Made by a program: the position numbers and the translations under genes. Positions 18,491 to 38,833 of a DNA stretch of 64,000 bases are shown one piece after another; the first letter of the stretch is position 1, and every line of letters starts with the position of its first letter. This DNA is from Candidatus Omnitrophota bacterium (GTDB lineage Bacteria; Omnitrophota; Gorgyraeia; Zapsychrales; Zapsychraceae), in contig JAJDCB010000024.1 of assembly GCA_029261065.1 (NCBI GenBank), positions 102,364 through 166,363 of the forward strand, given 5' to 3'. Below the pieces are notes generated by a model. It had not been told where the DNA came from. It was given only the letters and a program-made list of their open reading frames with translations, and did not search any database.

Positions 18491-21286
18491 TTAGCGAACA
18501 TTAACTTTTTGCTGCGCTTCACGGATAATTGATGTTGCATCTAAAATAAGAGCTATACTTCCATCTCCTAAAATCGACGCACCACTTATGCCTTGGACAT
18601 CTGAAAAATGGTCCGGCAAAGATTTAATAACAATTTCGTCTTCTCCAATTAACCGATCAACTTCCACTCCAATTGTTTCATCCCCATCTGTAAGAACCAC
18701 GATTTTCCTTGAATTTTTATTTTCATTACTTTTGGTATTCATCCTTAAAATTGTTTCTAGATCAACTAGGCTTAAGGCATGACCTCTTAATTTTACTGTT
18801 GTATTTCCCTCTACTGAGAAAATGGAGTCGTCTTCAACTTTAATAATTTCAGAAACACATTCTAATGGCATAGCAAAAACTTGATTATTGATAACCACTA
18901 AAAGAGCTTGAATAATGGCTAAAGTAAGAGGAATCTTAATGCTAAAATTTGTTCCTCGACCAAGTTCAGTATCGATTTCTACCGTTCCATTTAATTCTTC
19001 AATAGTTCTACGCACAACATCCATACCAACACCACGACCTGAAATACCGGTAATTTGTGCAGCTGTACTAAAACCTGGCATAAATATGATTTGAAATTTT
19101 TCTTTCTCTGTCATTTGATCTAGCTTTTCTTGTGTCAGTATTCCTTTTTCTAAAGCTTTTTCAGATAGTTTGTTTGAGTCCAACCCTTTACCATCATCAT
19201 TAATTTGGATACATATATTATTTCCTTCATAAGATGCTGACAATTTAACTGTTCCCGCTGCTGGTTTATCTGTTAGAGCTCTATCTTCGGTTGTTTCTAT
19301 ACCGTGATCAACAGAATTTCTAATCATATGTGTTAAAGGGTCCCCCAATTCATCAACAATTTTTTTATCAAGCTCTGTTTCTTCACCATAAATCTCTAAA
19401 TTAATATCTTTTTTTAATTCTTTAGCAATATCGCGAACCAACCTTTTAAAACGAGTAAAAACGCCCTCAATAGGAACCATCCTCGTTGACATCACACCTG
19501 ATTGGATGTCGCTTGATAATTTACTCAAAGCGCTGGTCGCCTCATCGAGACTATAAAGTTTTGTGTTAACCTCTTTCATTGAAAGTTTGTTCGATAAATT
19601 AAACATCTCAGATTCCAGTAAGCCAAAAATTTTATTCAATCTATTTGCATTTGCATTCTCATCCCCGAGTGATTGGGATGAATTTTTTCTTAACGCCATC
19701 TTTAATTCAGCAATTTTTCCACCAACTTGACTTAAACGCGTAACATTTTCCTTTGATTGTGAAACTTCATGTTTAACCTCACTAACCAACTGTGCAAATT
19801 TTGCTCTCGTAATTACAAGTTCTCCTGCTAAATTCATAAGGCTATCTAGCCTCCTAGTATCGATACGCATTGTTGTCACTTCAACGCCAGCAGTTTTGGT
19901 TGTTGATGGTGTTTCTTTTTCTTTCATAGCAACCTCTTTTTTTACAGTTTTTGTTGGATTTGCCGTTTTTGTCGTAGGAGCAACTTCTTGAACTAAAGAG
20001 ACTTCTTCTTTTTCAATATTAATTACTTCAATTTGATCAATGCTAATGGCAATATCAATGTCCTTTAACAATTTTGAGGTTGTCAAAATGACACCAACGT
20101 ATACGGCCGTTTCTACATTATCATCGATTAATTCGACATCAGGTTTACAATGAATAATTTCTCCTAGCATGGCTAATTTTTCATTACAAACATTTGCTTT
20201 AATGTTTTTTGTTACACAATTTGCATCAACAGCATAACTGACTCGAAACACATTTAATCCATCTTTTGTTGCATTCTCTTTTAAAGCTGTCAAGTTTTCA
20301 GGCAAATCACTAAATAATTGTGAAACATCAACAGAGTCACCTGTCGTTTCATTAAGAGATTTAGTTGATTTTTCAAGTTTTAATTTATCAATACATTTTT
20401 GAAGCTTTTGAATGACATCAGTATTATTCAAAAGGGCATAGTTTGTTTCGCGAATTTGAGCTGCGGAGTTTTTTATCCAATCAATCCCTATAAATAATGT
20501 AGAAACTATATCCGATTCAGGAACTAGCTTTTCTTCCCTGTATTTTGACAACAAATCTTCCATTTTATGCGCAACAAGTTCAATATCGTTTCTTTTAATT
20601 ATGCCAGATGAGCCTTTGATGGTATGTGAAATTCGAAATAATTCATTAACAGCTTCAATAGGATCAACTTTATTTTCTTCAAGTTGAATCATAACTTCAT
20701 TAAAACGATCAATATTTTGAAATGTATCATCTAAATAAGCTCCCACATATTTTAAAAAATCCTCGCTAGGGGCAGCTACTTCAGTCGCGGCTTCTACAGG
20801 CGGCGTTATTTTTTCTTGAGAAACACCAGCTTCTTCACTTGTCGTTTTAGCAGAATCTGTTTTCCCTGATGTTCCATCTAAAACGGCTTTTATTTCAGTA
20901 ACAACATCAGTGGTGTCCCCTTCATCCGTACCATCCGATTTTAAACGGTCCAATAAAGAACTCAATGTATCAAAAGCGTTGAATAAAACATCTATAATAT
21001 CAATTGTAAGCACAAGTTCACTATTTCGAACACGATCAAGAATGGTTTCCATCTCATGCGTTAATCCTGAAATATTTGAAAAATCAAGAAAACTTGCGGT
21101 GCCCTTAATCGTATGTGCCGCCCGAAACATTGTGTTTATCATATCTACAGAGACTTCTTCATCATTCTTAAGAATTTCTTCAGCTTTAAGAAGATTATCA
21201 TTTAACTCTTGTAGATATTGTTCACTTTCTGAGAGGAATTCAGCAATAATTTCGCTTCTATCATCGTCTATCTCTGAGTCACTCAT
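18491..21286 (-). CDS. cheA: Chemotaxis histidine kinase CheA with two N-terminal Hpt (P1) domains
   Basis: Two H-x-x-K-G phospho-His motifs (AAHTIKGTASFL; ISHTIKGSSGII) separated by a Ser/Thr/Glu-rich linker. HATPase_c blocks (HGIE..., GRGVGMDVVR) and a C-terminal CheW-like P5 domain. 931 aa. Confidence 0.95.
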   Translation of the reverse strand: MSDSEIDDDRSEIIAEFLSESEQYLQELNDNLLKAEEILKNDEEVSVDMINTMFRAAHTIKGTASFLDFSNISGLTHEMETILDRVRNSELVLTIDIIDVLFNAFDTLSSLLDRLKSDGTDEGDTTDVVTEIKAVLDGTSGKTDSAKTTSEEAGVSQEKITPPVEAATEVAAPSEDFLKYVGAYLDDTFQNIDRFNEVMIQLEENKVDPIEAVNELFRISHTIKGSSGIIKRNDIELVAHKMEDLLSKYREEKLVPESDIVSTLFIGIDWIKNSAAQIRETNYALLNNTDVIQKLQKCIDKLKLEKSTKSLNETTGDSVDVSQLFSDLPENLTALKENATKDGLNVFRVSYAVDANCVTKNIKANVCNEKLAMLGEIIHCKPDVELIDDNVETAVYVGVILTTSKLLKDIDIAISIDQIEVINIEKEEVSLVQEVAPTTKTANPTKTVKKEVAMKEKETPSTTKTAGVEVTTMRIDTRRLDSLMNLAGELVITRAKFAQLVSEVKHEVSQSKENVTRLSQVGGKIAELKMALRKNSSQSLGDENANANRLNKIFGLLESEMFNLSNKLSMKEVNTKLYSLDEATSALSKLSSDIQSGVMSTRMVPIEGVFTRFKRLVRDIAKELKKDINLEIYGEETELDKKIVDELGDPLTHMIRNSVDHGIETTEDRALTDKPAAGTVKLSASYEGNNICIQINDDGKGLDSNKLSEKALEKGILTQEKLDQMTEKEKFQIIFMPGFSTAAQITGISGRGVGMDVVRRTIEELNGTVEIDTELGRGTNFSIKIPLTLAIIQALLVVINNQVFAMPLECVSEIIKVEDDSIFSVEGNTTVKLRGHALSLVDLETILRMNTKSNENKNSRKIVVLTDGDETIGVEVDRLIGEDEIVIKSLPDHFSDVQGISGASILGDGSIALILDATSIIREAQQKVNVR

Positions 21287-23721: not shown

Positions 23722-25980
23722 TTAACCAAAACTTAATTTTTCTTCATCATTATTATCTTTGGCTCTTGCTTTAGTTTGTGTGTTTCCTTTTTTAGCAGTA
23801 ATTGTTACAGGTTTTGAAGGCAGCTCTGTTGTATCGTTAGATTTTGTTTGAGTGGACTCTCTAGATTCTCCACCATCTTCCGATACACGAAACCGACCAA
23901 CAAGGTCAATAAGTGTTGCCGATTGTGCTGCCATTTGTTCTGAAGAGGATGCCAATGACTCAGAAGCGGTAGCATTCCCCTCGGTAATGGCTGTATTTTC
24001 TTCCATGGTAGCTGCTTGTTCAGATGTTGCATTAGAAATACTTTTTAACTGCTCTGCAACACTAGTAATATCCACAAGCATTTCTTTTAAACTATCACCA
24101 GCTTCTTTGGATAGATTAACACCTTGTTCAACTTGGTTAGAACTCTCAACGATAAGATTCTTAATATCTTTAGCAGACTCAGCACTTCTTTCTGCTAACT
24201 TTCTTACCTCATCAGCAACCACAGCAAAGCCCTTACCATGCTCACCAGCCCGAGCAGCTTCAATGGCCGCATTTAAAGCAAGTAAATTTGTTTGATCTGC
24301 AATGTCTGTTATTATTTCTACGGCTTCCGTTATCTGCTTTGAGCTTTTTTCTATTGAGCCTATAGCTTCAATAGTATTATCCATACCTTCAGCCGTTTTT
24401 TCCGCTTTCTTGGACACACTTTGAGCCGAATCATCAGCAGATGATGCACTGGTTGAGTTAGATTGGACTGAACTTGATAATTCTTCAAAACTTGCAGATT
24501 GCTGTTGCGCACCATCTGAAATTTTACTAGCACTTGTAGCAATCTCGTCAGTTCCTAAATTTAATTGTTGAGATGAAGATTTCACTTGTATTATGATATC
24601 TTCAATTTTAGTTACAAATTTGTTAAAATTATTAGCCAAGTCTCCTAATTCATCTTTATTCGCTATCTGTATTCTTTTTGTTAAATCCCCTTCGCCTTCT
24701 GCAATATCCTGCATATTTTTATTTATATAATTAATTGGTTGCGTAATCGATTTACTAACAAAAATACCTGTTACAGCAACAATACCAGCAATGATAAGTG
24801 CGACAAGAAGAACTTGCCAGGTTAAACTTTTTATAGGCGCCATAATTTCACTTAATTCAACCTCGGAAATTAAAAACCAATCTAGCCCTTCAATATCTAT
24901 TGTTGAATATGAAGATACAACTTTTTTTCCTTTATAATTTACATCTTCTATTGTACCGGTTTCTCCAGCCACAGCATTTTTACTAGACTCATTTTCAACC
25001 TTAATTTTTTGAATGGTTGATTCTTCTGAAAATCTGGAATCCGATTTAAAAAATTTATCAGAACCAATTATGAAACTTTCACCTGTTTCACCCATACCAG
25101 AGTGCTCTTGAACTACTTCATTAATCCCATCAACAGGCATTTGAAAAACTAAAGCTCCTAGTAGCGTGTCTCCATCATATATTGGTGAAGCTGTAAAAGA
25201 GGCGGGTGCATTGTAAGAGGGCTCATAAAAATCAAAATCGACAATATTAACAAAATCTTTTTGTCCACTTAACAACGCCTCTTTCGCCGCTCTTGCAAAA
25301 TTTGTATTGCTATATGGTCCATTAAACAATGAAGTTGCATAATCAACTTCCTTAAAAACAGAATATACAATGGCCCCATTTACAGGTTCAACCAAAAAGA
25401 TATCGTAATAACCAAATTCTTGCAAATAAGAACGAATTATAGCGTGATATTGTTCATGCAATTTAGAATATATTGTACTATCATTGGCTTTTTCTAAGGC
25501 TTCTTTGGCACCAATAGGATGTGAATTATTTGCAATGTAGTGATATTGCAAGACTTTTGCTGCAACTGTTTTTGGCATCCAACGATCAACAGCACTGGTG
25601 TCTGAACCATCTGTGTTAGCCTGTTGATATGTATATCGGTCTCTTAGTTTCCCATCGATCGTAGATTTATTTTCCTTATAAAAGTCACCTTCTGAATCTT
25701 CAATTTTTGAATAAGCATACGAAAATTGTTTCATTGCCTGAACTATCATACCATTCTGTGAAAAAGTTTTTACCTGGCCCTTATATGAAGCCATATTATC
25801 TTCCAAAGATTTTTTCTTAATGGCACTAACAGCTTCTAATTTTTTTTGTAAAACGTCCGAAGTCATTTTTGAAGCCGATTTAATACTTAAAATTGAAACA
25901 ATTAGCAAAGGAATCAAACCCAATGCCATAAAAAAGAAAATCAATTTTGTTTTAATTTTGAATTTTTTAAAAATGTTCAT
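23722..25980 (-). CDS. mcp: Methyl-accepting chemotaxis protein with about 350-aa periplasmic double-Cache-like sensor, HAMP and MCP signalling domains; Ser/Thr-rich C-terminal tail
   Basis: TM1 [21 protein letters not shown] and TM2 [19 protein letters not shown]. Highly conserved hairpin tip region ...[35 protein letters not shown].... No C-terminal NWETF-like pentapeptide. Confidence 0.95.
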
Positions 25981-26379
25981 TTAAGAACCTCCAATTGTGT
26001 TTGTAGATTTAATATATTTTGTAAGCGTCCATTGATCAGTATCATCAATGCCGTCAAAGGAAACAGCAACGTCATATAAATTGCCTGGTTGCTCCTTTTG
26101 GCAACGTTTAACACAAGCAATTAATTCTAAAGGCTTTTCATAAGAAAGCTCCTCGGGTTTATAAAAAGTAGAGCTATATTTTTTAAAATGTGGTATATAA
26201 ATTTTTAAATTCAAAATTTCTTTTTTAGAATAGCTTTTTTTTGAATAAAACAAAAGACCACCAACACTAATATTTTTTGTCTTAGAATTTTCTTGAGTGC
26301 TAAAATTATTTCGCCTTTGACAATCTAAGGAAAAATGTTTATTCAATCGGCTGTATTTTCTTTTCTCACTTATAGACAT
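25981..26379 (-). CDS. Single-domain PilZ (c-di-GMP-binding) protein embedded in the che operon
   Basis: Canonical PilZ motifs RxxxR (RKYSR) and D/NxSxGG (NISVGG). 132 aa. 10-nt overlap with cheV upstream and abuts the MCP gene downstream. Confidence 0.75.
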   Translation of the reverse strand: MSISEKRKYSRLNKHFSLDCQRRNNFSTQENSKTKNISVGGLLFYSKKSYSKKEILNLKIYIPHFKKYSSTFYKPEELSYEKPLELIACVKRCQKEQPGNLYDVAVSFDGIDDTDQWTLTKYIKSTNTIGGS

Positions 26380-27417: not shown

Positions 27418-27771
27418 CTATAACGAATCTAAAATTTTTTTTGCTATCTCAACTGTTATTGGTTTTTTAATTAAAGAGATTGCGCCATTATCCTGTAATA
27501 TTTTCTCTCTCTCGTCGGTAGCTTCTACAGTAGTTACGATTAATTTTTGGTTTGGAAATTTAGCTTTAATATTTTTTAAAATTGTCAATCCATCTTCTGC
27601 GCCTAAATTATCATCAAGGATAATCAAATCAAAATTTTCTTGTTTATCTAATAAAGCATAAAGCCCGTCAGGATCTAATGTTGTTTTGACATCAGCACCA
27701 CACTCTAAAAAAAGATTTTTATGCTTGTTTAGTGCGAACTCGCCATTATCCAATAAACAAATTTTTGCCAA
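27418..27771 (-). CDS. Single-domain receiver protein
   Basis: ICLLDNGEF ... LIILDDNLGAEDG ... LIVTTVEA ... LIKKPI. Confidence 0.75.
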   Translation of the reverse strand: MAKICLLDNGEFALNKHKNLFLECGADVKTTLDPDGLYALLDKQENFDLIILDDNLGAEDGLTILKNIKAKFPNQKLIVTTVEATDEREKILQDNGAISLIKKPITVEIAKKILDSL

Positions 27772-27786
27772 TTTGATATCCTTTTT

Positions 27787-28143
27787 TTAAGCTATCTTTG
27801 ATTTAAAATCCAAATATGCACTTTTTAACTGTGGGCAGAGTTTACTTATTTCTGCAATATCACTTTCCGCTTTTGAAAGTTCATCAATACTAGCAGCAAT
27901 TTTTGAAACATGATCTATTCTTAAATTTGCATACACACCCTTTATTCTGTGCGCTATCGCTTGTATATCTTCATGATTTTGTTGTTCAATTCCTTTTTCT
28001 AAAGCTATTAAGTCAGTATCACATTGCGTAAATGAAGAAATTAATATACTCTTATAAACATCTACAGGAATACTTAACTCACCACTTTTTTCTTTAAGAA
28101 AACTATCTAGATCAAAGTCATTGTTTTCATTTTCATTTGACAT
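27787..28143 (-). CDS. Stand-alone histidine phosphotransfer (Hpt) protein
   Basis: Hpt H-x-x-K-G motif (IAHRIKGVYANL) in a 118-aa all-helical protein. Confidence 0.7.
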   Translation of the reverse strand: MSNENENNDFDLDSFLKEKSGELSIPVDVYKSILISSFTQCDTDLIALEKGIEQQNHEDIQAIAHRIKGVYANLRIDHVSKIAASIDELSKAESDIAEISKLCPQLKSAYLDFKSKIA

Positions 28144-28163: not shown

Positions 28164-28331
28164 TTAAAATAAATTTAAACTTTTTTGCGTATCATCTTCT
28201 TGGATGTTATTTTTATTGAAATTTTTTGCCAAGATTATAACAAGAGAAACGATAACTATGGCTATAATCACAAATGATATAACCACCCATAATTGTGTTC
28301 TTTTCTTTTTTGGATCATAAAATATTGACAT
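28164..28331 (-). CDS. Possible small single-TM membrane peptide (55 aa), absent from the ORF track (below 60 aa)
   Basis: Hand translation: MSIFYDPKKKRTQLWVVISFVIIAIVIVSLVIILAKNFNKNNIQEDDTQKSLNLF. Fills the otherwise empty 196-bp gap between the Hpt gene and the tandem-CheX gene. No clear SD. Confidence 0.2.
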   Translation of the reverse strand: MSIFYDPKKKRTQLWVVISFVIIAIVIVSLVIILAKNFNKNNIQEDDTQKSLNLF

Positions 28332-28340
28332 ATCTAAAAT

Positions 28341-30014
28341 TTAAGCTTCAAAGGTCTTGATTTTTTTCATCGCATCGTCTAATTTTTTTGCCGCATCCTT
28401 AGCAGATACAGTTACAATCTTCAATGTGATTTTAGACTCTTTTTTTTCTTCCTCTTCATTATTTGCTTTTTGAGCAACAGAATCATTGACTGTTTTTAAC
28501 TCATCTAATCTATTAACTTCATTACTCTTATCTTCTAAACTTGTATCATTAGAATCAGATTTTTCTGGTTGAGCAGCTTCTACTGCTTTATTTAAGGCTT
28601 CAAGAGGGTCTCTATCCTCATCGCTCTTATTTAAAGGTTCATCATCAGATTTTGTTTTTGATTCATCAAGCGCGTTTTGAAGTGCTGTTAAAGGATCAGA
28701 TTTTTCTTCTTTAGAGTCTTCAGTAGAATTACCAGGTGCCTTATTGGAATCATTAACAGCATTTTGAAGCATCGCTAAAGGATCTGCATTAGCTTCCTTC
28801 GCTTGTACACTCTTTTCGTCAGTTGGAGCAATTTTACTCAAAGCATCTAGCGCTTGTAACTTAGAGTCATTGACTGGTGTTTGGGCTGCAGAACCTTCAC
28901 TACTTTCCATAACTTTGTAAGTAAATATTATTAGAAATTGAAAATCCTCACATTTAAAATTCATTTCTAAATTGGATGTTTTTTCGGTATCACCAGAAAA
29001 TTCTAGATCAACGCCCATTACAGTAGATGGAATACTTATGTCAAAACCATAAGCTCCTTCAGCCCCCCCTAATTTCGTTTTAGCACCTCCGGCAATCATA
29101 TTAATTAATTCACCAACTCCATCCGTAACATCGGAATCAACTTCCTCAATGTCCATATATAACATTTTTGAAACAATGAGGCACGCTGCTTTTGAAGATA
29201 AACAAGCAGCGATATTTCCTTCAACCTTACCAGTCACACCAATAGAACTGACAATCCCTTCATCAGCAGAAGGCAGTATTTTCTCGTCAGTTTCTTCGAC
29301 ACTCAAAGTAAGCGTGGCTGAAAATGTATCAACGACAGCTTCTCTTAAAGCGTCTTTTAATGCCTCTTGAATTTCCATATCAGAAAATTTCCTTTCACTA
29401 GATACATTTTGATTATTGCTGATAATTGGCGTATCAACAATATTTTTTTCATCTTTTTTCAATTCAAGAGAAGAGCTATCCCCTGAAGCATCCAAAGCCG
29501 TTAATTTGTCTAATGCAGAAGTGGACGCTTCATCAACTTTAGCTGTATTTAGTTTATAATCTAAAATAGCAAGTATTTCTATATTATCTACTTTGTACTT
29601 TTTTAATATTTCGATTGTTTTGCCTTGACTATTTGACTTAACAATTTTTTTACCTCGAACGGTAGTTGGAATACTAATATCAAAAGGATGTTCTTTATCT
29701 GGTCCACCGATCCGATTTTTCATCCCACCAGCAATCATGTTAAGCAACTCGCCTATACCGTCTTTGACATCACTGTTAAGTTCCTCAATTTCCATATACA
29801 ACATTTTAGACACAATCTCACAGGCAATTTTTTCTGACATATAAATAGAAACAGTGCCTTCAAGAGATCCCGCTATTCCAATAGAACATATAAGGCTCTC
29901 CTCTACAGGTGAGATTGTGTCATCTAGGACTTCGGCTGATAACGCCATAGTTGTTTGAAAGACATCCAGAACAGATTCATTCAAAGTTACAATTAAATCA
30001 TCATGATAGGACAT
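28341..30014 (-). CDS. Tandem CheX-domain protein (two CheC/CheX-type phosphatase domains) with a long acidic C-terminal tail carrying repeated DPLxALQNA motifs
   Basis: Two D-x3-E-x2-N motifs each followed by Pro about 23 residues later (DGIGELLN...P and DGVGELIN...P) within two clearly paralogous ~150-aa halves. Tail has DPLAMLQNAV, DPLTALQNAL, DPLEALNKAV. Confidence 0.75.
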   Translation of the reverse strand: MSYHDDLIVTLNESVLDVFQTTMALSAEVLDDTISPVEESLICSIGIAGSLEGTVSIYMSEKIACEIVSKMLYMEIEELNSDVKDGIGELLNMIAGGMKNRIGGPDKEHPFDISIPTTVRGKKIVKSNSQGKTIEILKKYKVDNIEILAILDYKLNTAKVDEASTSALDKLTALDASGDSSSLELKKDEKNIVDTPIISNNQNVSSERKFSDMEIQEALKDALREAVVDTFSATLTLSVEETDEKILPSADEGIVSSIGVTGKVEGNIAACLSSKAACLIVSKMLYMDIEEVDSDVTDGVGELINMIAGGAKTKLGGAEGAYGFDISIPSTVMGVDLEFSGDTEKTSNLEMNFKCEDFQFLIIFTYKVMESSEGSAAQTPVNDSKLQALDALSKIAPTDEKSVQAKEANADPLAMLQNAVNDSNKAPGNSTEDSKEEKSDPLTALQNALDESKTKSDDEPLNKSDEDRDPLEALNKAVEAAQPEKSDSNDTSLEDKSNEVNRLDELKTVNDSVAQKANNEEEEKKESKITLKIVTVSAKDAAKKLDDAMKKIKTFEA

Positions 30015-30030
30015 AGCCTATATCCTTATG

Positions 30031-30420
30031 TTAACCCGCTGCGTTTAAAATTGGATCAATAGCTGCTTTTAATTGATCTGGTGTAAAGGGTTTTGGTATA
30101 TAACCAGCCAAATTTGGATTAGCTGCTTTTGCCTCTGCAATTTTATCATCTGTTCCCTCAGTTGTAACCATAATGACAGGTATTTCGGCAACGGCAGGCA
30201 CTTTAGCCACAGCACCGACAAATTCAATACCAGACATATTAGGCATGTTCCAATCGCACAAAACTAGGGCAACATCTTGGAAATTACCTGCTAAGGTTTC
30301 TATACCTACCGCCCCATCAGGTGCTTCTAAGATTTCATTTTCAAACCCAGCTTTTTTAATAATTTGAACAATCATTTTTCTTTGGACTCCTGAATCATCA
30401 ATAACTAGAATTTTTTTCAT
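30031..30420 (-). CDS. cheY: Chemotaxis response regulator CheY (second copy)
   Basis: ILVIDDSGVQRKMI ... LVLCDWNMPNMSG ... VIMVTT ... YIPKPF. Confidence 0.85.
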   Translation of the reverse strand: MKKILVIDDSGVQRKMIVQIIKKAGFENEILEAPDGAVGIETLAGNFQDVALVLCDWNMPNMSGIEFVGAVAKVPAVAEIPVIMVTTEGTDDKIAEAKAANPNLAGYIPKPFTPDQLKAAIDPILNAAG

Positions 30421-30458: not shown

Positions 30459-31040
30459 TTAGCTCTTAATTTTGTCTATCGGTAACAAAACAAAATCAAC
30501 AACTAAAACCTTCTTTTTCTTTATGAAGAAACTCATTTCTGTTAACTTTTCTTCATTATAATTAAATTCCACACCCTCAGGCACATCATTTCTATATTTT
30601 AAAGGGGCAGAAATAATTAACTCACCATAACCTTCATTTTTGATATCATTTTTAGTTTTTCCAGAAATAACATTATGAATTTCACCGCAATTATCCATAA
30701 CAAACTCTTCATCTTCATCATCAAACCCAGTTTGCCCCAAGGCTTTTAATAGCTCCCGAGCATAAACCTCTTCTACATAAAAAACCATAGTTCCACAGGT
30801 ATCTTTACTGTCAAATTTTGATTTATCAGCATAAAAATTAATAACTGAAATAAAACAGGGTCCATTAAATTTCTGAAGACCAAAAACTCTCATGCGGCTT
30901 TCATATTCAATGATATCTTTTTCCTCAAATTCAGGATCCTGGGAGAAAATAGCGCTAGCCATTGTTTCGCAGGTTTCTTCAACGGCTTTCATAACAATTT
31001 TAATTATTGGGTCATTTTGAATAACATCTTCTTCACTCAT
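30459..31040 (-). CDS. cheX: CheX-type CheY-P phosphatase
   Basis: Exact CheC/CheX/FliY consensus D-x3-E-x2-N-x22-P present once: DNCGEIHN followed by 22 residues then P. 193 aa. Confidence 0.7.
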   Translation of the reverse strand: MSEEDVIQNDPIIKIVMKAVEETCETMASAIFSQDPEFEEKDIIEYESRMRVFGLQKFNGPCFISVINFYADKSKFDSKDTCGTMVFYVEEVYARELLKALGQTGFDDEDEEFVMDNCGEIHNVISGKTKNDIKNEGYGELIISAPLKYRNDVPEGVEFNYNEEKLTEMSFFIKKKKVLVVDFVLLPIDKIKS

Positions 31041-31064: not shown

Positions 31065-32933
31065 TTAATCATTCAAAACATTACTTACATCGAAACGTAA
31101 ATTATCTCTTAAAGTGTTTCTCTTAGTCTCAACAGCTTCTTCTTCCTCTTGGCTTGATTCAAACGTTTCAATATCTGATTGCGTTGATAAAAGATTATCA
31201 AAATATTTATCCATTTGCGTATTAAGCAATCTTTCTACTTTTTCACCTCTTAAAACTTCATCTTTTTTAGTTTTTTGAATTTCCCCTTTGTTGATATTTG
31301 CAAAATCAAATGCCAATTTGTTTAGTACAAAGATAGAATCTTTAAGGTAATGAGAAATTTTCATACTATTATTAAAGTTGACAACATCTTTCGAAGGATC
31401 TGTGGCATTTTGCTTTAATTTATCTAAAACATTATTAAGTTGATCAATTTGTTTTAAATTTCTCAAATATATCTCTTCGATAAACTGAAAATTATTTTGC
31501 GACCTCTCTACATATTGTGACAAATCCTGCAAATTATTTAATGATGAACTTTTGTAATGGTTAAAGTGCTTTACCCCTTTTAATATTCCCTCATTTGTCA
31601 TATTAACGGCTTTAGTCATTTTCTGAGAGAGAATAAGCAAGTCTTTTACGTCCGAGGTAGAGTCAGTACCTTTTTTTGCTTTGGTCCGTTTAGGAGCTTG
31701 TTTATCTTTTCTTTCAATTTTTCTAATAATTTTCTCAATCTGTTTTGAAACGCCTTGCATGGTCTGCGTTAAATCATTTAAGTTATTGGAATGAGCATAA
31801 TAACCAACGATGCTCTTATTGACATCTTGAACTTGTTGGTGTTGATCTTTTATTATCTGTTTATTCTTTTGATATTGAATGTAGACCTCTTTAATCTTAG
31901 TTTGATTCCCCTCCATTTGTGCTGTCAATTTTGTAATTTCGTTCTCAACGTTTTTTGTTAAAACATTTCTATCGTGATAGGATGTTAATGCCATGTAAAA
32001 AGACTCGATAAATTCTTTAACATATTGCGTTAATCTTCTCGTTTCACCCTGTAATTCCGTTGTTGATTCTTTATAACTGCCTAAAATGTTGCGTACATAG
32101 TAAGCAATGAGTAGCAAGAATATAAAAATTGATCCAAGAATTAATATTTGAAATGTTTTGCTTCCGTTATTTTTTAATACTGTAGAATAGACTTTAGCAT
32201 CATAATTTTGTCGATTTTTGCTATCTAATCGTCTTAACCCTAAATGCAAACTTAAAAATGTAGTCTCGAGAATCTTTTTAGAATTATTTATTGACCTTTC
32301 ATATTCACTATTTAATTTTGTGGCATAAACCTCAAGCTTGTCTAACCTGTCTATAAGTTCAAGTTTTATAGCTCCGATCTCTTCTATTCCGTTTACGGCA
32401 TTAACAACTAGAGAAAGTTCATTTAACGCATACCCCAACAAACGATCTTTTTGGGCCAAACTTTCGTTTTGTTCAACAAATAAATTCACAGCATCTAACA
32501 TCTTTTGTGTTTCCCCACCTTCACCTTCTGGATTAGGAAACTTTAGATTAAGTTGATTGATTTGAAACTCTAAAACTGCTTTTCTTTTATTATCGAGATA
32601 ACCAATATTTCTTATCTCACTTTTTATTTTTAATAATTTCTTTGAGTCAATTTCAGGAAAGCCGTTGAGATGAGAAATCAAAAGATTAATTTTTTTATCA
32701 ATTACTTTTTCGTGAGACCCAGAGTGAGGAGAATTTTCAAATACCTGATCTGTTAGGGATTGGACACCATTTAATTGCTGAGTTGAGAAATCTAATCGTG
32801 CTCGAATACGATCAAATTTTTGATGGCTTGAGTTTAATTCGATGAGTGATTGAGGACGTGTCAACATGTACGTGACACCAATCATAAATATAAATACAAA
32901 ATATAGTAAAAATCGAAGAATAGTTTTATTCAT
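31065..32933 (-). CDS. Two-TM membrane protein with about 225-aa periplasmic helical region and about 350-aa cytoplasmic coiled coil; no recognisable MCP signalling, HAMP or kinase motifs
   Basis: TM1 ILRFLLYFVFIFMIGVTYML, TM2 FQILILGSIFIFLLLIAYYV. Cytoplasmic part is heptad-rich with an acidic C-terminus. Sits inside the che supra-locus. Confidence 0.6.
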   Translation of the reverse strand: MNKTILRFLLYFVFIFMIGVTYMLTRPQSLIELNSSHQKFDRIRARLDFSTQQLNGVQSLTDQVFENSPHSGSHEKVIDKKINLLISHLNGFPEIDSKKLLKIKSEIRNIGYLDNKRKAVLEFQINQLNLKFPNPEGEGGETQKMLDAVNLFVEQNESLAQKDRLLGYALNELSLVVNAVNGIEEIGAIKLELIDRLDKLEVYATKLNSEYERSINNSKKILETTFLSLHLGLRRLDSKNRQNYDAKVYSTVLKNNGSKTFQILILGSIFIFLLLIAYYVRNILGSYKESTTELQGETRRLTQYVKEFIESFYMALTSYHDRNVLTKNVENEITKLTAQMEGNQTKIKEVYIQYQKNKQIIKDQHQQVQDVNKSIVGYYAHSNNLNDLTQTMQGVSKQIEKIIRKIERKDKQAPKRTKAKKGTDSTSDVKDLLILSQKMTKAVNMTNEGILKGVKHFNHYKSSSLNNLQDLSQYVERSQNNFQFIEEIYLRNLKQIDQLNNVLDKLKQNATDPSKDVVNFNNSMKISHYLKDSIFVLNKLAFDFANINKGEIQKTKKDEVLRGEKVERLLNTQMDKYFDNLLSTQSDIETFESSQEEEEAVETKRNTLRDNLRFDVSNVLND

Positions 32934-33077: not shown

Positions 33078-33485
33078 TTAGACGAATCGAAAATCAGACA
33101 TTTTACTTTTTGCTTCAAGAATAACATTAACAATGTCTGCTCTACTAACAATACCAACTAATTTCCCATCCTTCGTAATCGGAACACGACGAATATGATT
33201 TCTTATAAAAAACTTACAAATATCAATGGCATCATCATTTTCGTTAAAAGAGATAACATCTACAGTCATGTAATCTTCTACGTTGTTTTTAATATCGAGA
33301 TTTTTGTCGAGTAAAATACGTAACACATCTTTTTCTGTAAGAATACCTACAATAGATTCATGTTCGTCAACCACGGGTAAACCGCTGACTTTATTTTTAG
33401 AAAGCAAATCTAGAGCCTCATAAATCGGTGTTTTTGCTGATACCGTGTGGATATTTGTACTCATGATAGACTGAATTGAAAGCAT
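33078..33485 (-). CDS. CBS-domain pair protein
   Basis: Two CBS motifs (VSGLPVVDEHESIVGILTEKDVLR; IRRVPITKDGKLVGIVSRADIV). Strong SD AAAGGAGG about 7 nt upstream of the ATG. Confidence 0.85.
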   Translation of the reverse strand: MLSIQSIMSTNIHTVSAKTPIYEALDLLSKNKVSGLPVVDEHESIVGILTEKDVLRILLDKNLDIKNNVEDYMTVDVISFNENDDAIDICKFFIRNHIRRVPITKDGKLVGIVSRADIVNVILEAKSKMSDFRFV

Positions 33486-33684
33486 TTTTGCCTCCTTTAA
33501 AATTGGTTTGATTTCAAGTCTGAAAATAAAAAAGTCCGAGAATGAAACCCTTAATGCAGACTATATAAGTATAATACGTATTTAACACATGCGAAAGGCA
33601 AAATAGCAATTCAATTATTACTTCATAAGTTGTTGAAATTAAAAGGCTTACAAAGTAAAAATTATCTAAAACATGAGATTTATC

Positions 33685-34158
33685 CTAATATAACAATTTT
33701 TCGATGGCAGAAAGCAATTCTGGCGTCTGAAACGGCTTTTTCATATAAAAATCAACCCCCGCATCCATCGCCTTTTCCTTCGATTCATCGTCCACCGAAC
33801 CTGTAAGCATTATGACCGGAATTAAAGGTTCCTTAAATTGATCCTTGATTCTAGCTGTTAACGCGGATCCATCCATATCTAATAATTGTCCATCTGTAAT
33901 CACCAAATCAGGCTTATTCATTTGCAGGACATCAAGTGCCTCTTGGCCAGACAAGGCCGTTAAAACTTCAAAATTTTTTGATCGAAGGATGTATGCCAAT
34001 AATTTAATAAGATCTGGGGCATCATCGATAATGAGAATTTGAAAAGATTGTTTCTTCACAACTTCACTAACTTTTTGTAGAAGGCAATAAAAAGAAGAAT
34101 GTTGAACCTTTACCAAGTTCTGACTCAACCCACATTTTGCCACCATGACGTTCAACAA
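33685..34158 (-). CDS. Receiver-domain response regulator. Real start probably GTG at 34059 (about 124 aa) rather than the track start, which overlaps the kinase gene by 92 nt.
   Basis: ILIIDDAPDLIKLL ... LVITDGQLLDMDG ... VIMLTG ... YMKKPF. In-frame GTG 7 nt after the kinase stop codon gives MKKQSFQILIIDD. Confidence 0.8.
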   Translation of the reverse strand: MLNVMVAKCGLSQNLVKVQHSSFYCLLQKVSEVVKKQSFQILIIDDAPDLIKLLAYILRSKNFEVLTALSGQEALDVLQMNKPDLVITDGQLLDMDGSALTARIKDQFKEPLIPVIMLTGSVDDESKEKAMDAGVDFYMKKPFQTPELLSAIEKLLY

Positions 34159-35893
34159 TAATTTTTGATATTACCAAACCTAAACCGGTATTTCCCGACT
34201 CTCTTCTCGCACCCGTCGTTAACTGTCCGAATATTCTAAATAATTTTGAAATATCTTCTTTTTTAATCCCAACGCCTGTATCTTTAATTGCAATACAGAT
34301 AATGCCTTGCTGCACACTAGAAATAATGGAAACTCCACCCTTTTTTGTAAATTTTGTTGAATTTTCAATCAAATTTAACAAAACCTTCTCAATTTTTTCT
34401 TCATCAAACATGCAAACTGGTAACTCTTTATCTAATTTCAGAGTGATTTCAAGTCCTTTCTCTACAATTGCTGGCTCGCATTTATCTTTAACGCTTTTAA
34501 TTAAATCATTAATATTTCCTTGAGCTAATTTAAAATTTGTTTTTCCCATTTCAAGCTTTTGATAATCAACAACATCATTGATGAGACAGTCCAATCTATC
34601 TAAATTTCTTTTTGCTGTATTTAAAAAGTCTTGTTGCTCTTCGCTAATATCACCGGCCGAACCATCCAAAATTATACCTATACTCCCTTGAACAGCTGTT
34701 ATTGGACTTTTTAATTCATGGGCAACCATATTTAAAAAATCATCTTGCATCTTTGATGCCTTTTCAATACCTTTTTCAGCAATTTTTCGCTTACTTACAT
34801 CATTAAGGACCCCGATAGATCCCGTCACAACACCTTCTTCATTCTTTAATATACTTAAAGTTAATCCAACATCAATTATCTTATTATCTTTTCTTTTTAT
34901 TTTTGTTTCAATATTATGCCGACTTCCTGATTTACGAAAATCCGCTGATCTAATTTTCTTCCATTCCTCAGGTGGATAGAGCAAACTCACTTGTTGCAAG
35001 TACAACTCTTTTTTTCCCATACCTAAAAGCTCTTCCGTATTTTTATTCCAAGAAACAATCCTTTCTTGATCATCAACAAACATAATCGAGACGCCGGAAT
35101 TTTCAAATATTAATTTGTAGCGCTCCTCAGCTTCTTTTGCATCAACTTCCACTTGATTTAGTTCTCTGTCTCGATTAGAAAAATTTGTAATATCCGTAAT
35201 GACAACCAGTATTCTCGAAGGCTTACCATTTTCATCTCTAATTAAATTTTCAGACACCAAACCAATCTTGATGGAGTTATCTTTTGTTCGCAATTCTATT
35301 TCATAAGGTTCTAAATCTTCGCCTTCGAGTCGATCGGAAAATTTTTCTAATATTCTCATTTTGCTATCTTTTGGAATAAAGGGTAACATTAAAATATTTC
35401 TCCCCACATATTCCTGTATATCATATTGCAACCAGTCTGATAATTTATTATTTAACTTCACAATCTTTCCGTTTATGTCCACCACAACAATTGCTTGTGG
35501 GGATAGGTTAAATATCATTTGATAATCGAGAGGCTGTGGCAAACTTTGTCCTTTGAGACTAAGGTTTTCTTCAATAAGAAGTCTCGCGACATTGACACTA
35601 TTACTCCCTAAAATATCAGCATGAGCAGGCTTCTTCTCTTTTAATTCTTCATGAATATCTAATTTTCCAGAAACATCAAAAACGATATTTAAGGTTGGAT
35701 CTTTAAGAAAAGGATTAAAATCGGAAGCTATTTGAAGACCTAATCGATTGGCCAATTCAATGGCGGGGGTATCCAATTCGGAGGCAACAACAGCAAGGAT
35801 ACGCACGGTTGTTGTGTTACTTAAAATTTCAAGCAGAGACTTACAATCATCGCCTGATCCAATAATAAGAGCGCTATATCCGCTATTTGACAT
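34067..35893 (-). CDS. Cytoplasmic sensor histidine kinase (N-terminal unknown domain, PAS, PAS, HisKA, HATPase_c)
   Basis: H-box MVAHELKSPITAV. ATP-lid blocks (LIENSTKFTKKGG; DTGVGI; GNTGLGL). Two PAS-like segments. No TM helices seen. Confidence 0.9.
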   Translation of the reverse strand: MSNSGYSALIIGSGDDCKSLLEILSNTTTVRILAVVASELDTPAIELANRLGLQIASDFNPFLKDPTLNIVFDVSGKLDIHEELKEKKPAHADILGSNSVNVARLLIEENLSLKGQSLPQPLDYQMIFNLSPQAIVVVDINGKIVKLNNKLSDWLQYDIQEYVGRNILMLPFIPKDSKMRILEKFSDRLEGEDLEPYEIELRTKDNSIKIGLVSENLIRDENGKPSRILVVITDITNFSNRDRELNQVEVDAKEAEERYKLIFENSGVSIMFVDDQERIVSWNKNTEELLGMGKKELYLQQVSLLYPPEEWKKIRSADFRKSGSRHNIETKIKRKDNKIIDVGLTLSILKNEEGVVTGSIGVLNDVSKRKIAEKGIEKASKMQDDFLNMVAHELKSPITAVQGSIGIILDGSAGDISEEQQDFLNTAKRNLDRLDCLINDVVDYQKLEMGKTNFKLAQGNINDLIKSVKDKCEPAIVEKGLEITLKLDKELPVCMFDEEKIEKVLLNLIENSTKFTKKGGVSIISSVQQGIICIAIKDTGVGIKKEDISKLFRIFGQLTTGARRESGNTGLGLVISKIIVERHGGKMWVESELGKGSTFFFLLPSTKS

Positions 35894-35900
35894 TCTTAAT

Positions 35901-38645
35901 TTAGTCCGTTTTAAGATTTGCTTGTTTTAATAATTTAGAAACGCAGGATAATAATCCATCACGATTAAATGGTTTGGAAAGATGTTCATCTGCACCAGCT
36001 TTTTTAGCAGAATTAATAAGACTTAACGATGTATGTGATGTTAGTAATATTATGGGAATAATAGCTGTCTCTAGGCGAGATTTCAAAATGTTGATTGCTT
36101 CAACTCCATTCATTCCCGGCATATCATAATCAATGACAATCAAATCAGGCTTTTCTTTAAAAGTAGTCACCACACCTTCTTTACCATTACTTGCCTTTAT
36201 AACACTGTATCCTGAAAATTCCAAGATTTTTACAATAATCTTTTGGACATCTTCATCATCTTCAACAACCAAGATTCGAGACCCACTACTTTTTGGTTTC
36301 TCACGCACTTGGGGCTTGATTATTTTCTTTTTCTTTTCGACAATTATTTCTTCTTTTGGTGCACTCTCCTCCGAAATAATATCTTTAACAATATTTTCTT
36401 CTGGTTCTTGAGTTTCAAAAACAATAGGTTCTTTTTCAGCTTCAACAAAAGGCACATCTTCCGAAACAATCGGTACTTCTGAAACTTCTATTTTTGACTC
36501 AAGGGCAGCCTCAAGAGCTAATTGCTCTTCATCCAAATCTATAGCATCTTCTTCATCTAACTCAACCTCATTGCTTGTTTCATTTGTTTCGATTTCCTTA
36601 TCTTCCTCTTGATTTTCAACGGCTTCTTCAGGTTCTATGGTTTGATCTTCTTTTAATATTTCAACAGGTTCTATTTTTTTTACTTTTTTAACAACTTTAG
36701 CTTTCTTTACTTCTTTGACTTCCTCAACAGCTTCCTGCGCCTCTATTTCCTCCAACTCCGCTACAGGTTCTGTTCTTTTTGGCACTTTTTTCTTTTTAAC
36801 CACTTCAATTTCTTCAGATAACTCATCGTCAATATCGTCGTTAACCTCCATAGTTCTATGTGACAGTTCAGAATCATCCTCCTCCACAGGCGGCAATGTC
36901 TCGGCCCCCTTGGTTAATGTCCCTACAGATTTTGTAACCTCTTCAAAAGTTGTAATCCCTTGAGCAATTTTCTCTATCGCAGAAATTTTTATCGCTTTAA
37001 ATCCACCCCTTATAGCTGTTTTTCTAATTAAAGCTTCATTCGATCCTTTTGCAATAATGTCTTTTAATTCTTGTGTAATTTTTAAAACCTCAAATACGGC
37101 TGTTCGTCCAAAATAACCTGAATAACCACACTGTTGACATCCATCCCCTTTATAAAATTTTGTAATATTATACTCATCGATCAAATCTTGATATTCTTCT
37201 AAATAATCAGCATCAGGCGTATATTCAACCTTACATTTGCTACAAATAACTTTTACTAACCGTTGACTAACAATTAAAATAACAGCTGAACCAATCATAT
37301 AAGGATCAATACCAATATCAGCCAATCTTGAAATTGTAGCAATGGTGCTATTGGTATGCAGAGTGGATAATACAAGATGACCTGTAATAGAAGCTTTTAA
37401 TGCTATTTCAGCCGTTTCTAAATCCCTAATTTCTCCAATAAGAATAACGTTAGGGTCTTGACGTAAAATACTTCTTAATCCAGAAGCAAACGTGACACCT
37501 CGAGCAGGATTAACTTGAATTTGATTAATCCCCTCATTAACAAATTCAACAGGATCTTCAATCGTAACAATATTGGTTGTTTCACTTTTTACATAATTTA
37601 GAGCAGCGTATAACGTAGACGTTTTACCAGATCCTGTTGGTCCTGTTACAAGAACCATGCCTTGCGGCTGAGTAATCGCTTTTTGAAAAGCATTCGCCTC
37701 TTTTTCATTAAATCCAATTTTTTCCATATCCGTCTTAGCTTCAGCAGCATCAAGAATTCTCGCTACAACTTTTTCACCGTAATACGTTGGAATCGTTGAG
37801 ATACGAAAATCCACCTTTCGTCCCTGGACAAGCAAATTAATGCGACCATCTTGAGGTTTCACATCTTGAGCGATATCTAAATTTGCCAATATTTTAATAC
37901 GCGCAATCATCTTTGAATGCACGTTTTTAGGAACCTTCATAATATTTTTTAAATCACCATCAACACGATACCTAACATCAACATTTCCTTCTCGTGGTTC
38001 TAAATGAATATCACTGGCCCTTACTTTAATCGCATCACTTAATATTAAATTGATTAATTTTACGGTGGGACTACTATTTTCTTCTGTTTCAGCAATATCA
38101 ACCGTCTGACCGCCAGACATTTCAATATGAATACCACTAGGATCTTCTTCTTGAACAGCAGCTTCAGCTTCTTCCTCAGCACTCTCATCAACAACATCAT
38201 TCATCGCATCAAATAATTTATCATTAGATTGATAATACTCTTCAATATGTGTGTTAATTTCGCTTCTTGGAGCCAAGACGGGTTTTATAGGGACATCGTA
38301 AATATATCTTAAATCATCAAGAGCAACTACATCGTGAGGATTGCTCATGGCCAAAATTAAATTATCATCTTCTAAACAAATAGGAAATACGCCATGACGT
38401 TTGGCTAATTCGTAATTCATTTTTTTAACAACTTCAGGATCCAGATTCCCATTTTCAATATGATAAACTTGCATCTTAAACAAATCAACAGAAATGTCTA
38501 ACAGCTGTTTTTCCTTAACATAGCCTAACTCTATTAAAGCTTCATGAACTGGCACTTTTAAAACTAAATGTTTTGCTTTAGCTTCTTTAAGTTGCTCTTC
38601 GCTTATTAATTGGTTTTTTAATAGTTTATCAACTAAAGATGCCAC
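35901..38645 (-). CDS. GspE/PilB-family type II secretion / type IV pilus assembly ATPase fused to a C-terminal receiver domain through an about 215-aa Glu/Lys-rich linker
   Basis: N-terminal T2SE_N/MshEN-like domain. Walker A GPTGSGKT. Tetracysteine CSKC...CQQC. C-terminal REC: RILVVEDDEDV ... LIVIDYDMPGMNG ... IILLTS ... LSKPF. Start is GTG (38643-38645) with strong SD AAGGGAG 5 nt upstream. Confidence 0.9.
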   Translation of the reverse strand: MASLVDKLLKNQLISEEQLKEAKAKHLVLKVPVHEALIELGYVKEKQLLDISVDLFKMQVYHIENGNLDPEVVKKMNYELAKRHGVFPICLEDDNLILAMSNPHDVVALDDLRYIYDVPIKPVLAPRSEINTHIEEYYQSNDKLFDAMNDVVDESAEEEAEAAVQEEDPSGIHIEMSGGQTVDIAETEENSSPTVKLINLILSDAIKVRASDIHLEPREGNVDVRYRVDGDLKNIMKVPKNVHSKMIARIKILANLDIAQDVKPQDGRINLLVQGRKVDFRISTIPTYYGEKVVARILDAAEAKTDMEKIGFNEKEANAFQKAITQPQGMVLVTGPTGSGKTSTLYAALNYVKSETTNIVTIEDPVEFVNEGINQIQVNPARGVTFASGLRSILRQDPNVILIGEIRDLETAEIALKASITGHLVLSTLHTNSTIATISRLADIGIDPYMIGSAVILIVSQRLVKVICSKCKVEYTPDADYLEEYQDLIDEYNITKFYKGDGCQQCGYSGYFGRTAVFEVLKITQELKDIIAKGSNEALIRKTAIRGGFKAIKISAIEKIAQGITTFEEVTKSVGTLTKGAETLPPVEEDDSELSHRTMEVNDDIDDELSEEIEVVKKKKVPKRTEPVAELEEIEAQEAVEEVKEVKKAKVVKKVKKIEPVEILKEDQTIEPEEAVENQEEDKEIETNETSNEVELDEEDAIDLDEEQLALEAALESKIEVSEVPIVSEDVPFVEAEKEPIVFETQEPEENIVKDIISEESAPKEEIIVEKKKKIIKPQVREKPKSSGSRILVVEDDEDVQKIIVKILEFSGYSVIKASNGKEGVVTTFKEKPDLIVIDYDMPGMNGVEAINILKSRLETAIIPIILLTSHTSLSLINSAKKAGADEHLSKPFNRDGLLSCVSKLLKQANLKTD
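35904..36281 (-). other. Receiver (REC) domain portion of the GspE-REC fusion protein (approximate coordinates)
   Basis: Last about 126 residues contain all receiver signature positions (DD, D, T/S, K). Confidence 0.8.
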
Positions 38646-38738
38646 AACATCTCCCTTGGGTGTAGTAACACTTATATTATGACTACAGAATATACACTCT
38701 TACTTAGTTTAGCATTCGAAGTATATTTATTGTAACTC

Positions 38739-38766
38739 ATTATACTTCATAATATTTAGCGGGCAA
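38739..38766 (-). promoter_or_regulatory. Candidate sigma70-like promoter for the GspE-REC / kinase / receiver transcription unit
   Basis: Minus strand reads TTGCCC-N16-TATAAT (perfect -10). About 90 nt upstream of the GTG start. By eye only. Confidence 0.2.
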
Positions 38767-38833
38767 ATGTTAAATCAGTTTTTTTATAATTTGATTTAAA
38801 ACTATTAGGTAGGATTAATAACATGTGGACAAA

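Follow-up and report, generated by a model that had tools for sequence, protein, structure and literature searches.

The 64,000-nucleotide (nt) stretch of DNA analysed here, referred to below as the window (Candidatus Omnitrophota bacterium, assembly GCA_029261065.1, contig JAJDCB010000024.1, positions 102,364 to 166,363), carries a chemotaxis (che) gene cluster. One gene of this cluster, on the minus strand at 28341-30014, encodes a protein of 557 amino acids (aa) that contains two CheX domains, each with an intact active-site signature, followed by a long tail along which a short, predicted helical motif is repeated. The proposal that joins these features is that the protein is a fused, heterodimer-like phosphatase of phosphorylated CheY (CheY~P) with two intact sites, whose helices tether a partner, most likely the CheY encoded just upstream; we consider the chances of this proposal to be about even. 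The domains, the signatures, the fusion history, the family-wide motif and its copy number are results of this analysis and are described first, followed by the mechanism that they suggest.

Two CheX domains in one chain

The main parts of the open reading frame (ORF) are as follows. Structures were predicted using AlphaFold2 (AF2), with confidence given as the predicted local distance difference test (pLDDT).

28341-30014, minus strand: whole ORF, 557 aa, comprising CheX-A, linker, CheX-B and motif-bearing tail (open frame, Pfam, self-alignment).
29535-30014, minus strand: CheX-A domain, aa 1-160 (Pfam CheX; AF2 pLDDT 76-96).
29667-29762, minus strand: active-site signature A, D85-x3-E89-x2-N92-x23-P116 (D85-GIG-E89-LL-N92...P116).
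28905-29378, minus strand: CheX-B domain, aa 213-370 (Pfam; AF2 pLDDT 83-98).
29028-29123, minus strand: active-site signature B, D298-x3-E302-x2-N305-x23-P329 (D298-GVG-E302-LI-N305...P329).

Pfam matches the CheX family (PF13690) to the protein twice (E value 1.5e-37; 128 bits, cutoff 27), and the halves (aa 1-156 and 213-368) are 45% identical to each other (70/156 residues, E 9e-46). An earlier note, made from the DNA letters alone, had described a tandem CheX protein with two paralogous halves, and had proposed the Pfam comparison and the self-comparison as checks; both halves match CheX and align with one another, so that the description holds. The two signatures that it read, DGIGELLN...P and DGVGELIN...P, are likewise both intact. 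In an alignment of 134 relatives the signature columns are invariant or nearly so, with N305 invariant and D298, E302 and P329 at least 90% conserved. Both halves match the CheX signature D/S-x3-E-x2-N-x(21-22)-P with an N-to-P spacing of 23, and the signatures lie on AF2 helices 81-102 and 294-317. Homology and the adjacent cheY gene suggest that the protein would dephosphorylate CheY~P, at two active sites.

By its sequence the protein is a CheX-family member, and no equivalog of the characterised Thermotogales CheX enzymes, because its score against the NCBIfam equivalog model NF041094 (CheX_Thtogales) is only 102.7 bits, far under the cutoff of 280. Pfam gave no match to the CheC profile at E <=0.01 and none to the FliN domain (FliMN_C) anywhere in the 557 residues. 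The N-terminal peptide typical of FliY (LSQxEIDALL) is also absent, the protein beginning straight at the CheX helix.

The AF2 model, built on the alignment of relatives, contains two confident CheX domains. Foldseek was used to compare it with the PDB, and found 6vpw, 1squ, 1xko, 3hm4 and 3hzh (TMt 0.72-0.85; E 1e-7 to 3e-9). When residues 1-375 were modelled alone the mean pLDDT was 86 and the predicted template modelling score (pTM) was 0.80, with only the linker disordered. A pTM of this size requires a confidently fixed orientation of the domains, and we therefore infer that the two CheX domains pack as one body, in a covalent pseudo-dimer in line with the dimers of CheX crystals. A CheX dimer forms by way of the central β-sheets, and the conserved Gly residues of its interface turn are present in both halves. 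CheX family members have been described as dimeric CheY-P phosphatases, with the dimer seen in crystal structures (PMC12887009). The covalent double phosphatase of the earlier note is thus plausible, on the pTM and the crystal dimers, while the internal duplication by which it was said to have arisen is not upheld (see below). The two active sites each have a CheX domain of their own, with a disordered linker of 47 aa between the domains, in contrast to CheC, in which they belong to one pseudo-symmetric domain.

The protein thus has the same fold as CheX from T. maritima (1XKO/1SQU), B. burgdorferi (3HZH) and V. vulnificus (6VPW), the same active-site helix (D/S-x3-E-x2-N-x21-23-P, here in both halves) and a gene beside cheY in a che cluster, and the predicted packing would mimic the dimeric organisation of CheX using two domains of a single chain. 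Characterised CheX proteins, however, are about 150-160 aa long, with one domain and no tail, and a recent large survey of CheX homologues covers proteins of 153 aa (PMC12887009); the 557-aa protein has two non-identical domains, the 47-aa linker and a motif-bearing tail of 182 aa.

Fusion of two neighbouring cheX genes

A word-indexed search with the whole protein returned only the protein itself and one relative. When 1.84 billion representatives were searched exhaustively using HMMER, 1764 matches were obtained, of which the best 150 were looked at. The best matches have one CheX domain only; they align with the second half and the tail together, beginning exactly at M213, and this residue aligns with Met1 of 15 relatives. 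Four loci from three distinct relatives (L006/L007, L010 and L011) have two separate genes, here called XA and XB, where the window has a single ORF. The module in these relatives runs in the order X0 (a CheX-like protein of about 190 aa), a CheY of 129 aa, XA (181-184 aa, with one motif) and XB with its tail (297-390 aa), often followed by a membrane protein of 54-58 aa, and then by an Hpt protein and a receiver. The gene order of the window is the same, small membrane ORF included, but with XA and XB in a single frame. Two features of the junction are relevant:

29379-29486, minus strand: junction linker, aa 177-212, predicted to be disordered (pLDDT <50), with coding-like codon usage.
29376-29395, minus strand: AAAGGAAA (29388-29395), 11 nt, and then the ATG of M213 (29376-29378); noted for a Shine-Dalgarno-like AGGA and for the alignment of M213.

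The AAAGGAAA element and M213 may be the relic of a former cheX-B start. If this start is still used, it could produce an internal isoform of 345 aa (CheX-B plus tail), adding a second form of the protein in the manner of CheA-short. In the same way, the linker motif at aa 164-175 (see below) corresponds to the C-terminal motif of XA in relatives, where it reads KLEALARLSQLEGM, HLDAMQTLNALINNKN and AEAMAKLSQLVDGD. Of the CheX proteins of related loci, it is the tailed XB that the second half resembles most (127-144 bits); the first half scores slightly higher with XA (112-121 bits) than it does with XB (98-106 bits). Identity at third codon positions between the halves is 0.2-0.6, with synonymous positions saturated, which rules out a recent duplication or conversion. 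Recent gene conversion between the halves was also tested for and rejected, the only trace being that codon identity rises weakly at aa 65-84.

These comparisons indicate that the two-domain architecture is better explained by the fusion of two old adjacent cheX paralogues than by the internal duplication proposed in the earlier note. The alternative is that a lineage-specific tandem duplication of one cheX gave rise to both halves. It draws on the fact that the halves, at 45% identity and 135 bits, are more alike than the first half is to any XA, and that they share KMLYM(E/D)IEE, a sequence not seen in relatives; in addition, a neighbour-joining tree of 76 CheX domains (200 bootstraps) is unresolved around both halves, including the grouping of the first half with XA. 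We nevertheless consider it very unlikely, since the window matches the two-gene state of relatives exactly in gene order and count, each half is nearer to its own counterpart (half 2 to XB, and half 1 to XA rather than XB), and the C-terminal thirds differ in type, with Y-x-[VF]-[DE]-x-I as in XA and NF-x-C-E-D as in XB. The saturated third positions and the resemblance of AGGA and M213 to an old gene start argue the same way. The similarity between the halves and the unresolved tree do weigh against the fusion, as does the fact that it is seen in one assembly only: the identical protein on record at NCBI is a singleton cluster from one contig, and no other fused member of the subfamily is found among the best 150 of the 1764 matches.

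This last point would also fit an error of assembly or sequencing by which two separate genes appear as one ORF. The junction of 36 codons was analysed for coding character. It scores 0.41 bits per codon, a value reached by none of 2000 shuffles, and only 2.6% of shuffles stay open in frame; both other frames contain stop codons. It is also longer than the gaps between XA and XB, which are 25 nt and 39 nt in L010 and L011, with one shared base in L006. Because the junction is coding-like, rarely open by chance and longer than the gaps of relatives, the fusion looks genuine and evolved. We regard as extremely improbable either that the ORF is such an artefact, or, on the side of function, that the tail serves only as a spacer and lacks a specific partner, the latter being countered by a motif that is kept across about 90 proteins while the spacers diverge.

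A helical motif repeated along the tail

The tail and the motif copies of the protein are listed here, in order from the N-terminus, with scores from a position-specific scoring matrix (PSSM) that was built from 72 other proteins only.

29490-29525, minus strand: interdomain-linker motif copy, aa 164-175, STSALDKLTALD (PSSM 10.9 bits, null frequency 1.6e-4).
28344-28889, minus strand: tail, aa 376-557, disordered linkers broken by short helices (composition, AF2).
28827-28862, minus strand: motif copy, aa 385-396, KLQALDALSKIA, the first after CheX-B (PSSM 7.0 bits; AF2 helix 384-395).
28755-28790, minus strand: motif copy, aa 409-420, NADPLAMLQNAV (PSSM 9.5 bits; AF2 helix 412-422, pLDDT about 78).
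28668-28703, minus strand: motif copy, aa 438-449, KSDPLTALQNAL (PSSM 7.6 bits; AF2 helix 441-453).
28581-28616, minus strand: motif copy, aa 467-478, DRDPLEALNKAV (PSSM 9.9 bits; AF2 helix 470-480).
28344-28403, minus strand: terminal helix, aa 538-557, AKDAAKKLDDAMKKIKTFEA (PSSM 14.4 bits; pLDDT about 90).

The earlier note spoke of an acidic, disordered tail of about 190 aa. The tail has 182 aa and is mostly predicted to be disordered, with pLDDT below 50 across its linkers; it is net acidic, with 41 D+E against 27 K+R, yet also lysine-rich. It has no match in Pfam, NCBIfam or PDB sequences. At least three copies of a DPLxxLxxA-type motif, spaced 25-30 residues apart, had been noticed, and DPLxxLxxA is indeed present in three copies and no more, at aa 411, 440 and 469, each exactly 29 residues from the next. 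Compositional bias does not account for these copies: shuffles of the tail that preserve its composition contain a mean of 0.00075 copies, and none of 20,000 reaches three, in a shuffling test of the kind by which, according to the earlier note, the repeats might have been refuted.

Three is however an undercount. The matrix finds six sites of at least 7 bits, starting at aa 164, 385, 409, 438, 467 and 538, one of which lies outside the tail in the interdomain linker. The null for the matrix consisted of about 18,800 positions from other proteins of the window, and each of the six sites has a null frequency of at most 8e-4, placing it in the top 0.08%. The copy at aa 385-396 includes L392, which is invariant in alignment A5. 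The AF2 helices of the tail begin right after D411, D440 and D469, the Asp being the N-cap.

At the DNA level, the three units of 87 nt that make up the regular part of the tail are 44-60% identical, and Tandem Repeats Finder reported no tandem repeat in it; the tail repeats are therefore old copies of which the motif alone has been retained. The terminal helix was also considered as a membrane-targeting helix of the MinD type, and this was rated unlikely given that its net charge is near zero in relatives. The best match to the matrix outside the CheX protein is in the signalling domain (aa 624-635) of the methyl-accepting chemotaxis protein at 23722-25980 (minus strand); its 15.2 bits are the maximum of the null, and it is probably due to chance.

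The motif in the CheX subfamily

Many of the matches to the 557-aa protein are only 180-200 aa long, and consist of a CheX domain, a polar linker of about 15-25 aa and a C-terminal helix. A Gibbs search of 72 such short relatives identified the pattern x-x-[DSN]-A-x-[DE]-x-L-x-x-L-[ILMV], in which Leu8 is present in 69 of the 72; each protein has one copy, located 0-19 aa from the C-terminus. The general form, [DSN]-[AP]-x-[DE]-x-L-x-x-[LA]-[ILMV], is that of an N-capped amphipathic helix, with [DSN] at N-cap, A/P at N1 and D/E at N3. Such a pattern corresponds to a helix capping box with a hydrophobic stripe after it.

A further 20 relatives, with long tails, lay outside the training set of the matrix; the motif is present in 19 of them, and 12 have between two and seven copies. 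KLDxAMKxFK forms the C-terminal end of the eight long-tailed members of alignment A5, and more distant long-tailed relatives have a variant of it. The motif is absent from 21 loci that have a CheX ORF near a generic cheY, and from the Elusimicrobia locus L005, and it is therefore specific to this CheX subfamily. The sequences indicate that it is a C-terminal hallmark of the whole subfamily, and is not peculiar to the tail of the 557-aa protein. The DPLxALQNA repeats of the earlier note are therefore short linear motifs and not random low complexity, as had been claimed, but they are not confined to the tail in which they were noticed, the motif being shared by about 90 proteins.

Further searches were made for related sequences. 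Profiles of the tail and of the motif, run against the protein collection and the PDB, returned only members of the query or the GCN4 zipper at E 0.8. A metagenome scan using an alignment of the neighbouring 129-aa CheY found one close but truncated locus (L017) together with 79 generic CheYs, and the sole match in a scan of a contig collection was a canonical cheY-cheX pair in an Elusimicrobia metagenome-assembled genome. No description of a C-terminal extension or motif of CheX was found in the searchable literature.

Candidate partners of the motif

The predicted helices resemble docking motifs, being short, capped and amphipathic, retained in sequence while the spacers change, and carried on a flexible chain. 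The genes that have to be considered as sources of a partner are the following.

30031-30420, minus strand: CheY-type receiver, 129 aa (CheY129), 16 nt upstream of the fused cheX (Pfam Response_reg; best NCBIfam model CheY).
30459-31040, minus strand: X0, a divergent CheX-like protein of 193 aa (Pfam CheX, E 2.7e-8, partial match).
28164-28331, minus strand: small single-pass membrane ORF, 55 aa, beginning MSIFYDPKKKRTQLWV..., conserved directly downstream of CheX.
27418-28143, minus strand: an Hpt protein (27787-28143) and a receiver (27418-27771), located after the module in the window as they are in L006 and L011.

CheY129 would be the likely substrate, and by analogy is our best guess for the motif partner. 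It has the hallmarks of a CheY (DD, DWNMPNMSG, T and GY-x-x-KPF), and is 76-83% identical across related loci, compared with 42-46% for XB over its domain; the genes that neighbour it are 35-55% identical across loci. Its α4 and β5 segment (AEAKAANPNLAGY..KPFTP) is invariant in five orthologues. The adjacency of cheY and cheX recurs, and natural fusions also exist, these being P0051, a CheY-CheX fusion that lacks the motif, and P0079 and P0135, in which CheX, motif and receiver are joined.

The mechanism that we propose is as follows. The XA and XB products of relatives probably act as a heterodimer. Here they are joined in one chain, in which the two catalytic domains, each with its E-x2-N active site intact, would pack together to form a covalent pseudo-dimer. 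From each ancestral gene would have come a C-terminal motif on a flexible linker, and the motif would have multiplied in the XB tail; the disordered chain of the fused protein, about 230 residues in all, may thus present six or seven helices for docking. These helices would keep a partner close to the catalytic body, the likeliest one being the CheY whose gene lies 16 nt upstream, and such tethering would raise the local concentration of substrate, in the manner of the CheZ C-terminal and FliY N-terminal peptides.

Several observations weigh against CheY as the partner. The motif is retained in P0079 despite the fused receiver domain, and motif-bearing CheX genes occur without cheY nearby in L012 and L016. 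With the motif matrix, the C-terminal peptide of E. coli CheZ (QDQVDDLLDSLG) scores 2.2 bits, which makes it the second-best site in CheZ and places it in the top 0.4% of the null, and is not significant, while residues 4-18 of E. coli FliM score -3.3 to -4.4 bits; a search of the PDB using the motif profile found neither the CheZ nor the FliM-N peptide. In addition, the pLDDT of about 90 for the terminal helix means that it may fold back on the CheX body rather than on CheY.

It is possible, if unlikely, that the helices dock another partner and so localise the phosphatase, the candidates being the CheA, CheW or CheV array, the downstream Hpt protein, X0 and the small membrane protein. The lack of statistical similarity between the motif and known CheY-binding peptides is in keeping with this, as is the presence of the Hpt and receiver genes after the module and the fact that X0 and the small membrane ORF accompany the motif-bearing CheX even without cheY, in L012. 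L008, on the other hand, retains X0 and the membrane gene, yet its CheX, which is fused to CheY, has lost the motif; this loss is expected if the function of the motif is to hold CheY, and is unexplained if the motif binds X0 or the membrane protein. L016 has two motif-bearing CheX genes, but none of these other candidates within 4.5 kb.

The helices might instead act on the enzyme itself, by folding onto CheX in cis or between subunits, and thereby stabilise XA:XB, or block the active-site helix as a competitive auto-inhibitor until a signal releases it. A confident terminal helix that follows 50 disordered residues usually indicates packing on a folded part, and there is a precedent for regulation of CheX by a helix: AlphaFold modelling in V. 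cholerae predicted that PlzC, a PilZ protein, binds CheX through a single helix and modulates it (PMC12799141), and there is also a PilZ gene in the che cluster of the window. The internal copies however reach a pLDDT of only about 78, and the linker copy 42-69, which argues against stable docking in cis, and several identical helices for one or two grooves would be an odd design. We therefore consider this alternative doubtful.

If CheY is indeed the partner, a more speculative extension, to which we give little credence, is that the tail forms a multivalent array for CheY or CheY~P, and that the protein, having six or seven such helices but only two catalytic sites, is a high-capacity sponge or scaffold as well as an enzyme. 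Such an array could nucleate a localised assembly with the small membrane protein, and would determine both the gain of the chemotactic signal and the time over which it decays, a kind of control that is not described for any CheY phosphatase.

Comparison with CheZ, FliY and other tandem CheX proteins

CheZ of E. coli has a C-terminal helix on a flexible linker that tethers CheY, by its α4-β5-α5 face, and FliY has a CheY-binding peptide at its N-terminus. The 557-aa protein shares with CheZ a design in which a catalytic body is followed by a disordered linker and a short acidic amphipathic end helix with a D-L-L-x-x-L core, and its gene is likewise directly 3' of cheY. Many relatives end in ...DLLNQLI or ...EDLLKGLIGG, and CheZ ends in ...DDLLDSLGF. 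The layout of an amphipathic helix at the end of a disordered linker is reproduced in the AF2 model, with helices on the motifs and a pLDDT below 50 between them. The catalytic folds, by contrast, are unrelated, and a CheZ chain has one tether, compared with six or seven putative ones here.

FliY, together with a group of proteins that have two CheX domains followed by FliN (FliMN_C; P0071, P0096, P0106 and P0139), provides a second parallel, in that CheC or CheX domains are combined with a short CheY-docking helix by way of flexible sequence. These 2xCheX-FliN proteins resemble a FliY-like switch protein in which CheX has replaced CheC. In P0096, the equivalent of the interdomain linker contains two FliM-N-like peptides of the form LDDAAIQ(E/A)(M/R)L, one of them LDDAAIQEML. 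Tandem CheX is also found as plain 2xCheX (P0057 and P0110) and as HEAT-2xCheX. All of these other tandem proteins belong to other subfamilies (23-30% identity) and lack the [DSN]-[AP]-x-[DE]-x-L-x-x-L-[ILMV] array, and the 557-aa protein for its part lacks FliN.

The closest comparison is with the unfused module of uncultured relatives (P0005, P0006 and P0009), which has the same gene order, motif and KLDxAMKxFK helix, with about three to seven copies of the motif. There XA and XB are separate, and the single frame with a coding junction of 36 residues is found only in the genome of the window.

The enzyme family and the chemotaxis system are already known, and what is new is a fused heterodimeric CheX with a putative multivalent tether. 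CheX is usually viewed as a minimal phosphatase of about 150 aa that reaches CheY~P by diffusion. The locus described here and its roughly 90 relatives point to a CheX subfamily with a conserved helical docking motif on a flexible tether, present in up to seven copies, and would mean that the design principle of CheZ and FliY has been reached on another scaffold too. With CheY as the partner, it would be the third chemotaxis phosphatase to have become tethered independently, and the first one whose tether is multivalent. The range found in nature, from one to seven copies and with separate or fused subunits, offers ready variants for the study of tether number and subunit linkage in signal termination.

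Genes of the surrounding cluster

X0 has no NCBIfam match, and is 47-54% identical to its counterparts in L006, L010, L011 and L012; counterparts are also present in L007, L008, L009 and L015. It carries the exact D-x3-E-x2-N-x22-P signature that the earlier note had read in it. The cheC-like gene at 17348-17947 has one canonical site (S108..E112..N115..P), and with X0 and the two sites of the fused protein this brings the CheC/X-type catalytic sites of the locus to four, in agreement with the earlier count.

The 55-aa membrane ORF lies within what appears to be an intergenic gap of 197 nt, and consists of the MSIFYDPKKKRTQLWV start, a transmembrane helix and a short polar end. It matches no Pfam or NCBIfam family significantly. 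Homologues of 54-58 aa, with a start of the form M-x-(I/F)-(F/L)-(Y/W)-DP-K, are located directly after the CheX genes in L006/7, L008/9, L010 and L012. L012 (Logan SRR15505515) is syntenic with positions 33078-40219 of the window and shares Pyr_redox_2, CBS, X0, the tailed XB and the small membrane gene; it has no CheY, XA gene or 622-aa gene, and is probably the nearest available relative of the organism of the window. The last of these genes (31065-32933, minus strand) is directly upstream of the CheX/CheY module, and encodes a protein with an N-terminal hydrophobic segment and a long polar sequence that resembles a coiled coil; it has no match in Pfam or NCBIfam and is a singleton in the protein collection.

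The PilZ-domain gene of the che cluster (25981-26379, minus strand) starts with a 10-nt overlap of the end of cheV. An apparent PilZ-like region (RRHPR...NVSAGG) is also present at the N-terminus of P0128, ahead of two CheX domains, although Pfam makes no PilZ call there.

Among the signalling genes, that at 16266-16916 (minus strand) encodes a receiver fused to a HisKA-like fragment, 216 aa in all, with no ATPase domain, and CheA (18491-21286, minus strand) has two Hpt matches and a P2 domain. Together with the stand-alone Hpt protein, these suggest a branched phosphorelay. Upstream of the che genes, an MshE/T2SSE-type secretion ATPase with a C-terminal receiver (35901-38645, minus strand) has a PAS histidine kinase gene and a receiver gene beside it. 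The ORF at 53387-63967 (minus strand) is giant, with 3526 codons, and extends nearly to the end of the window.

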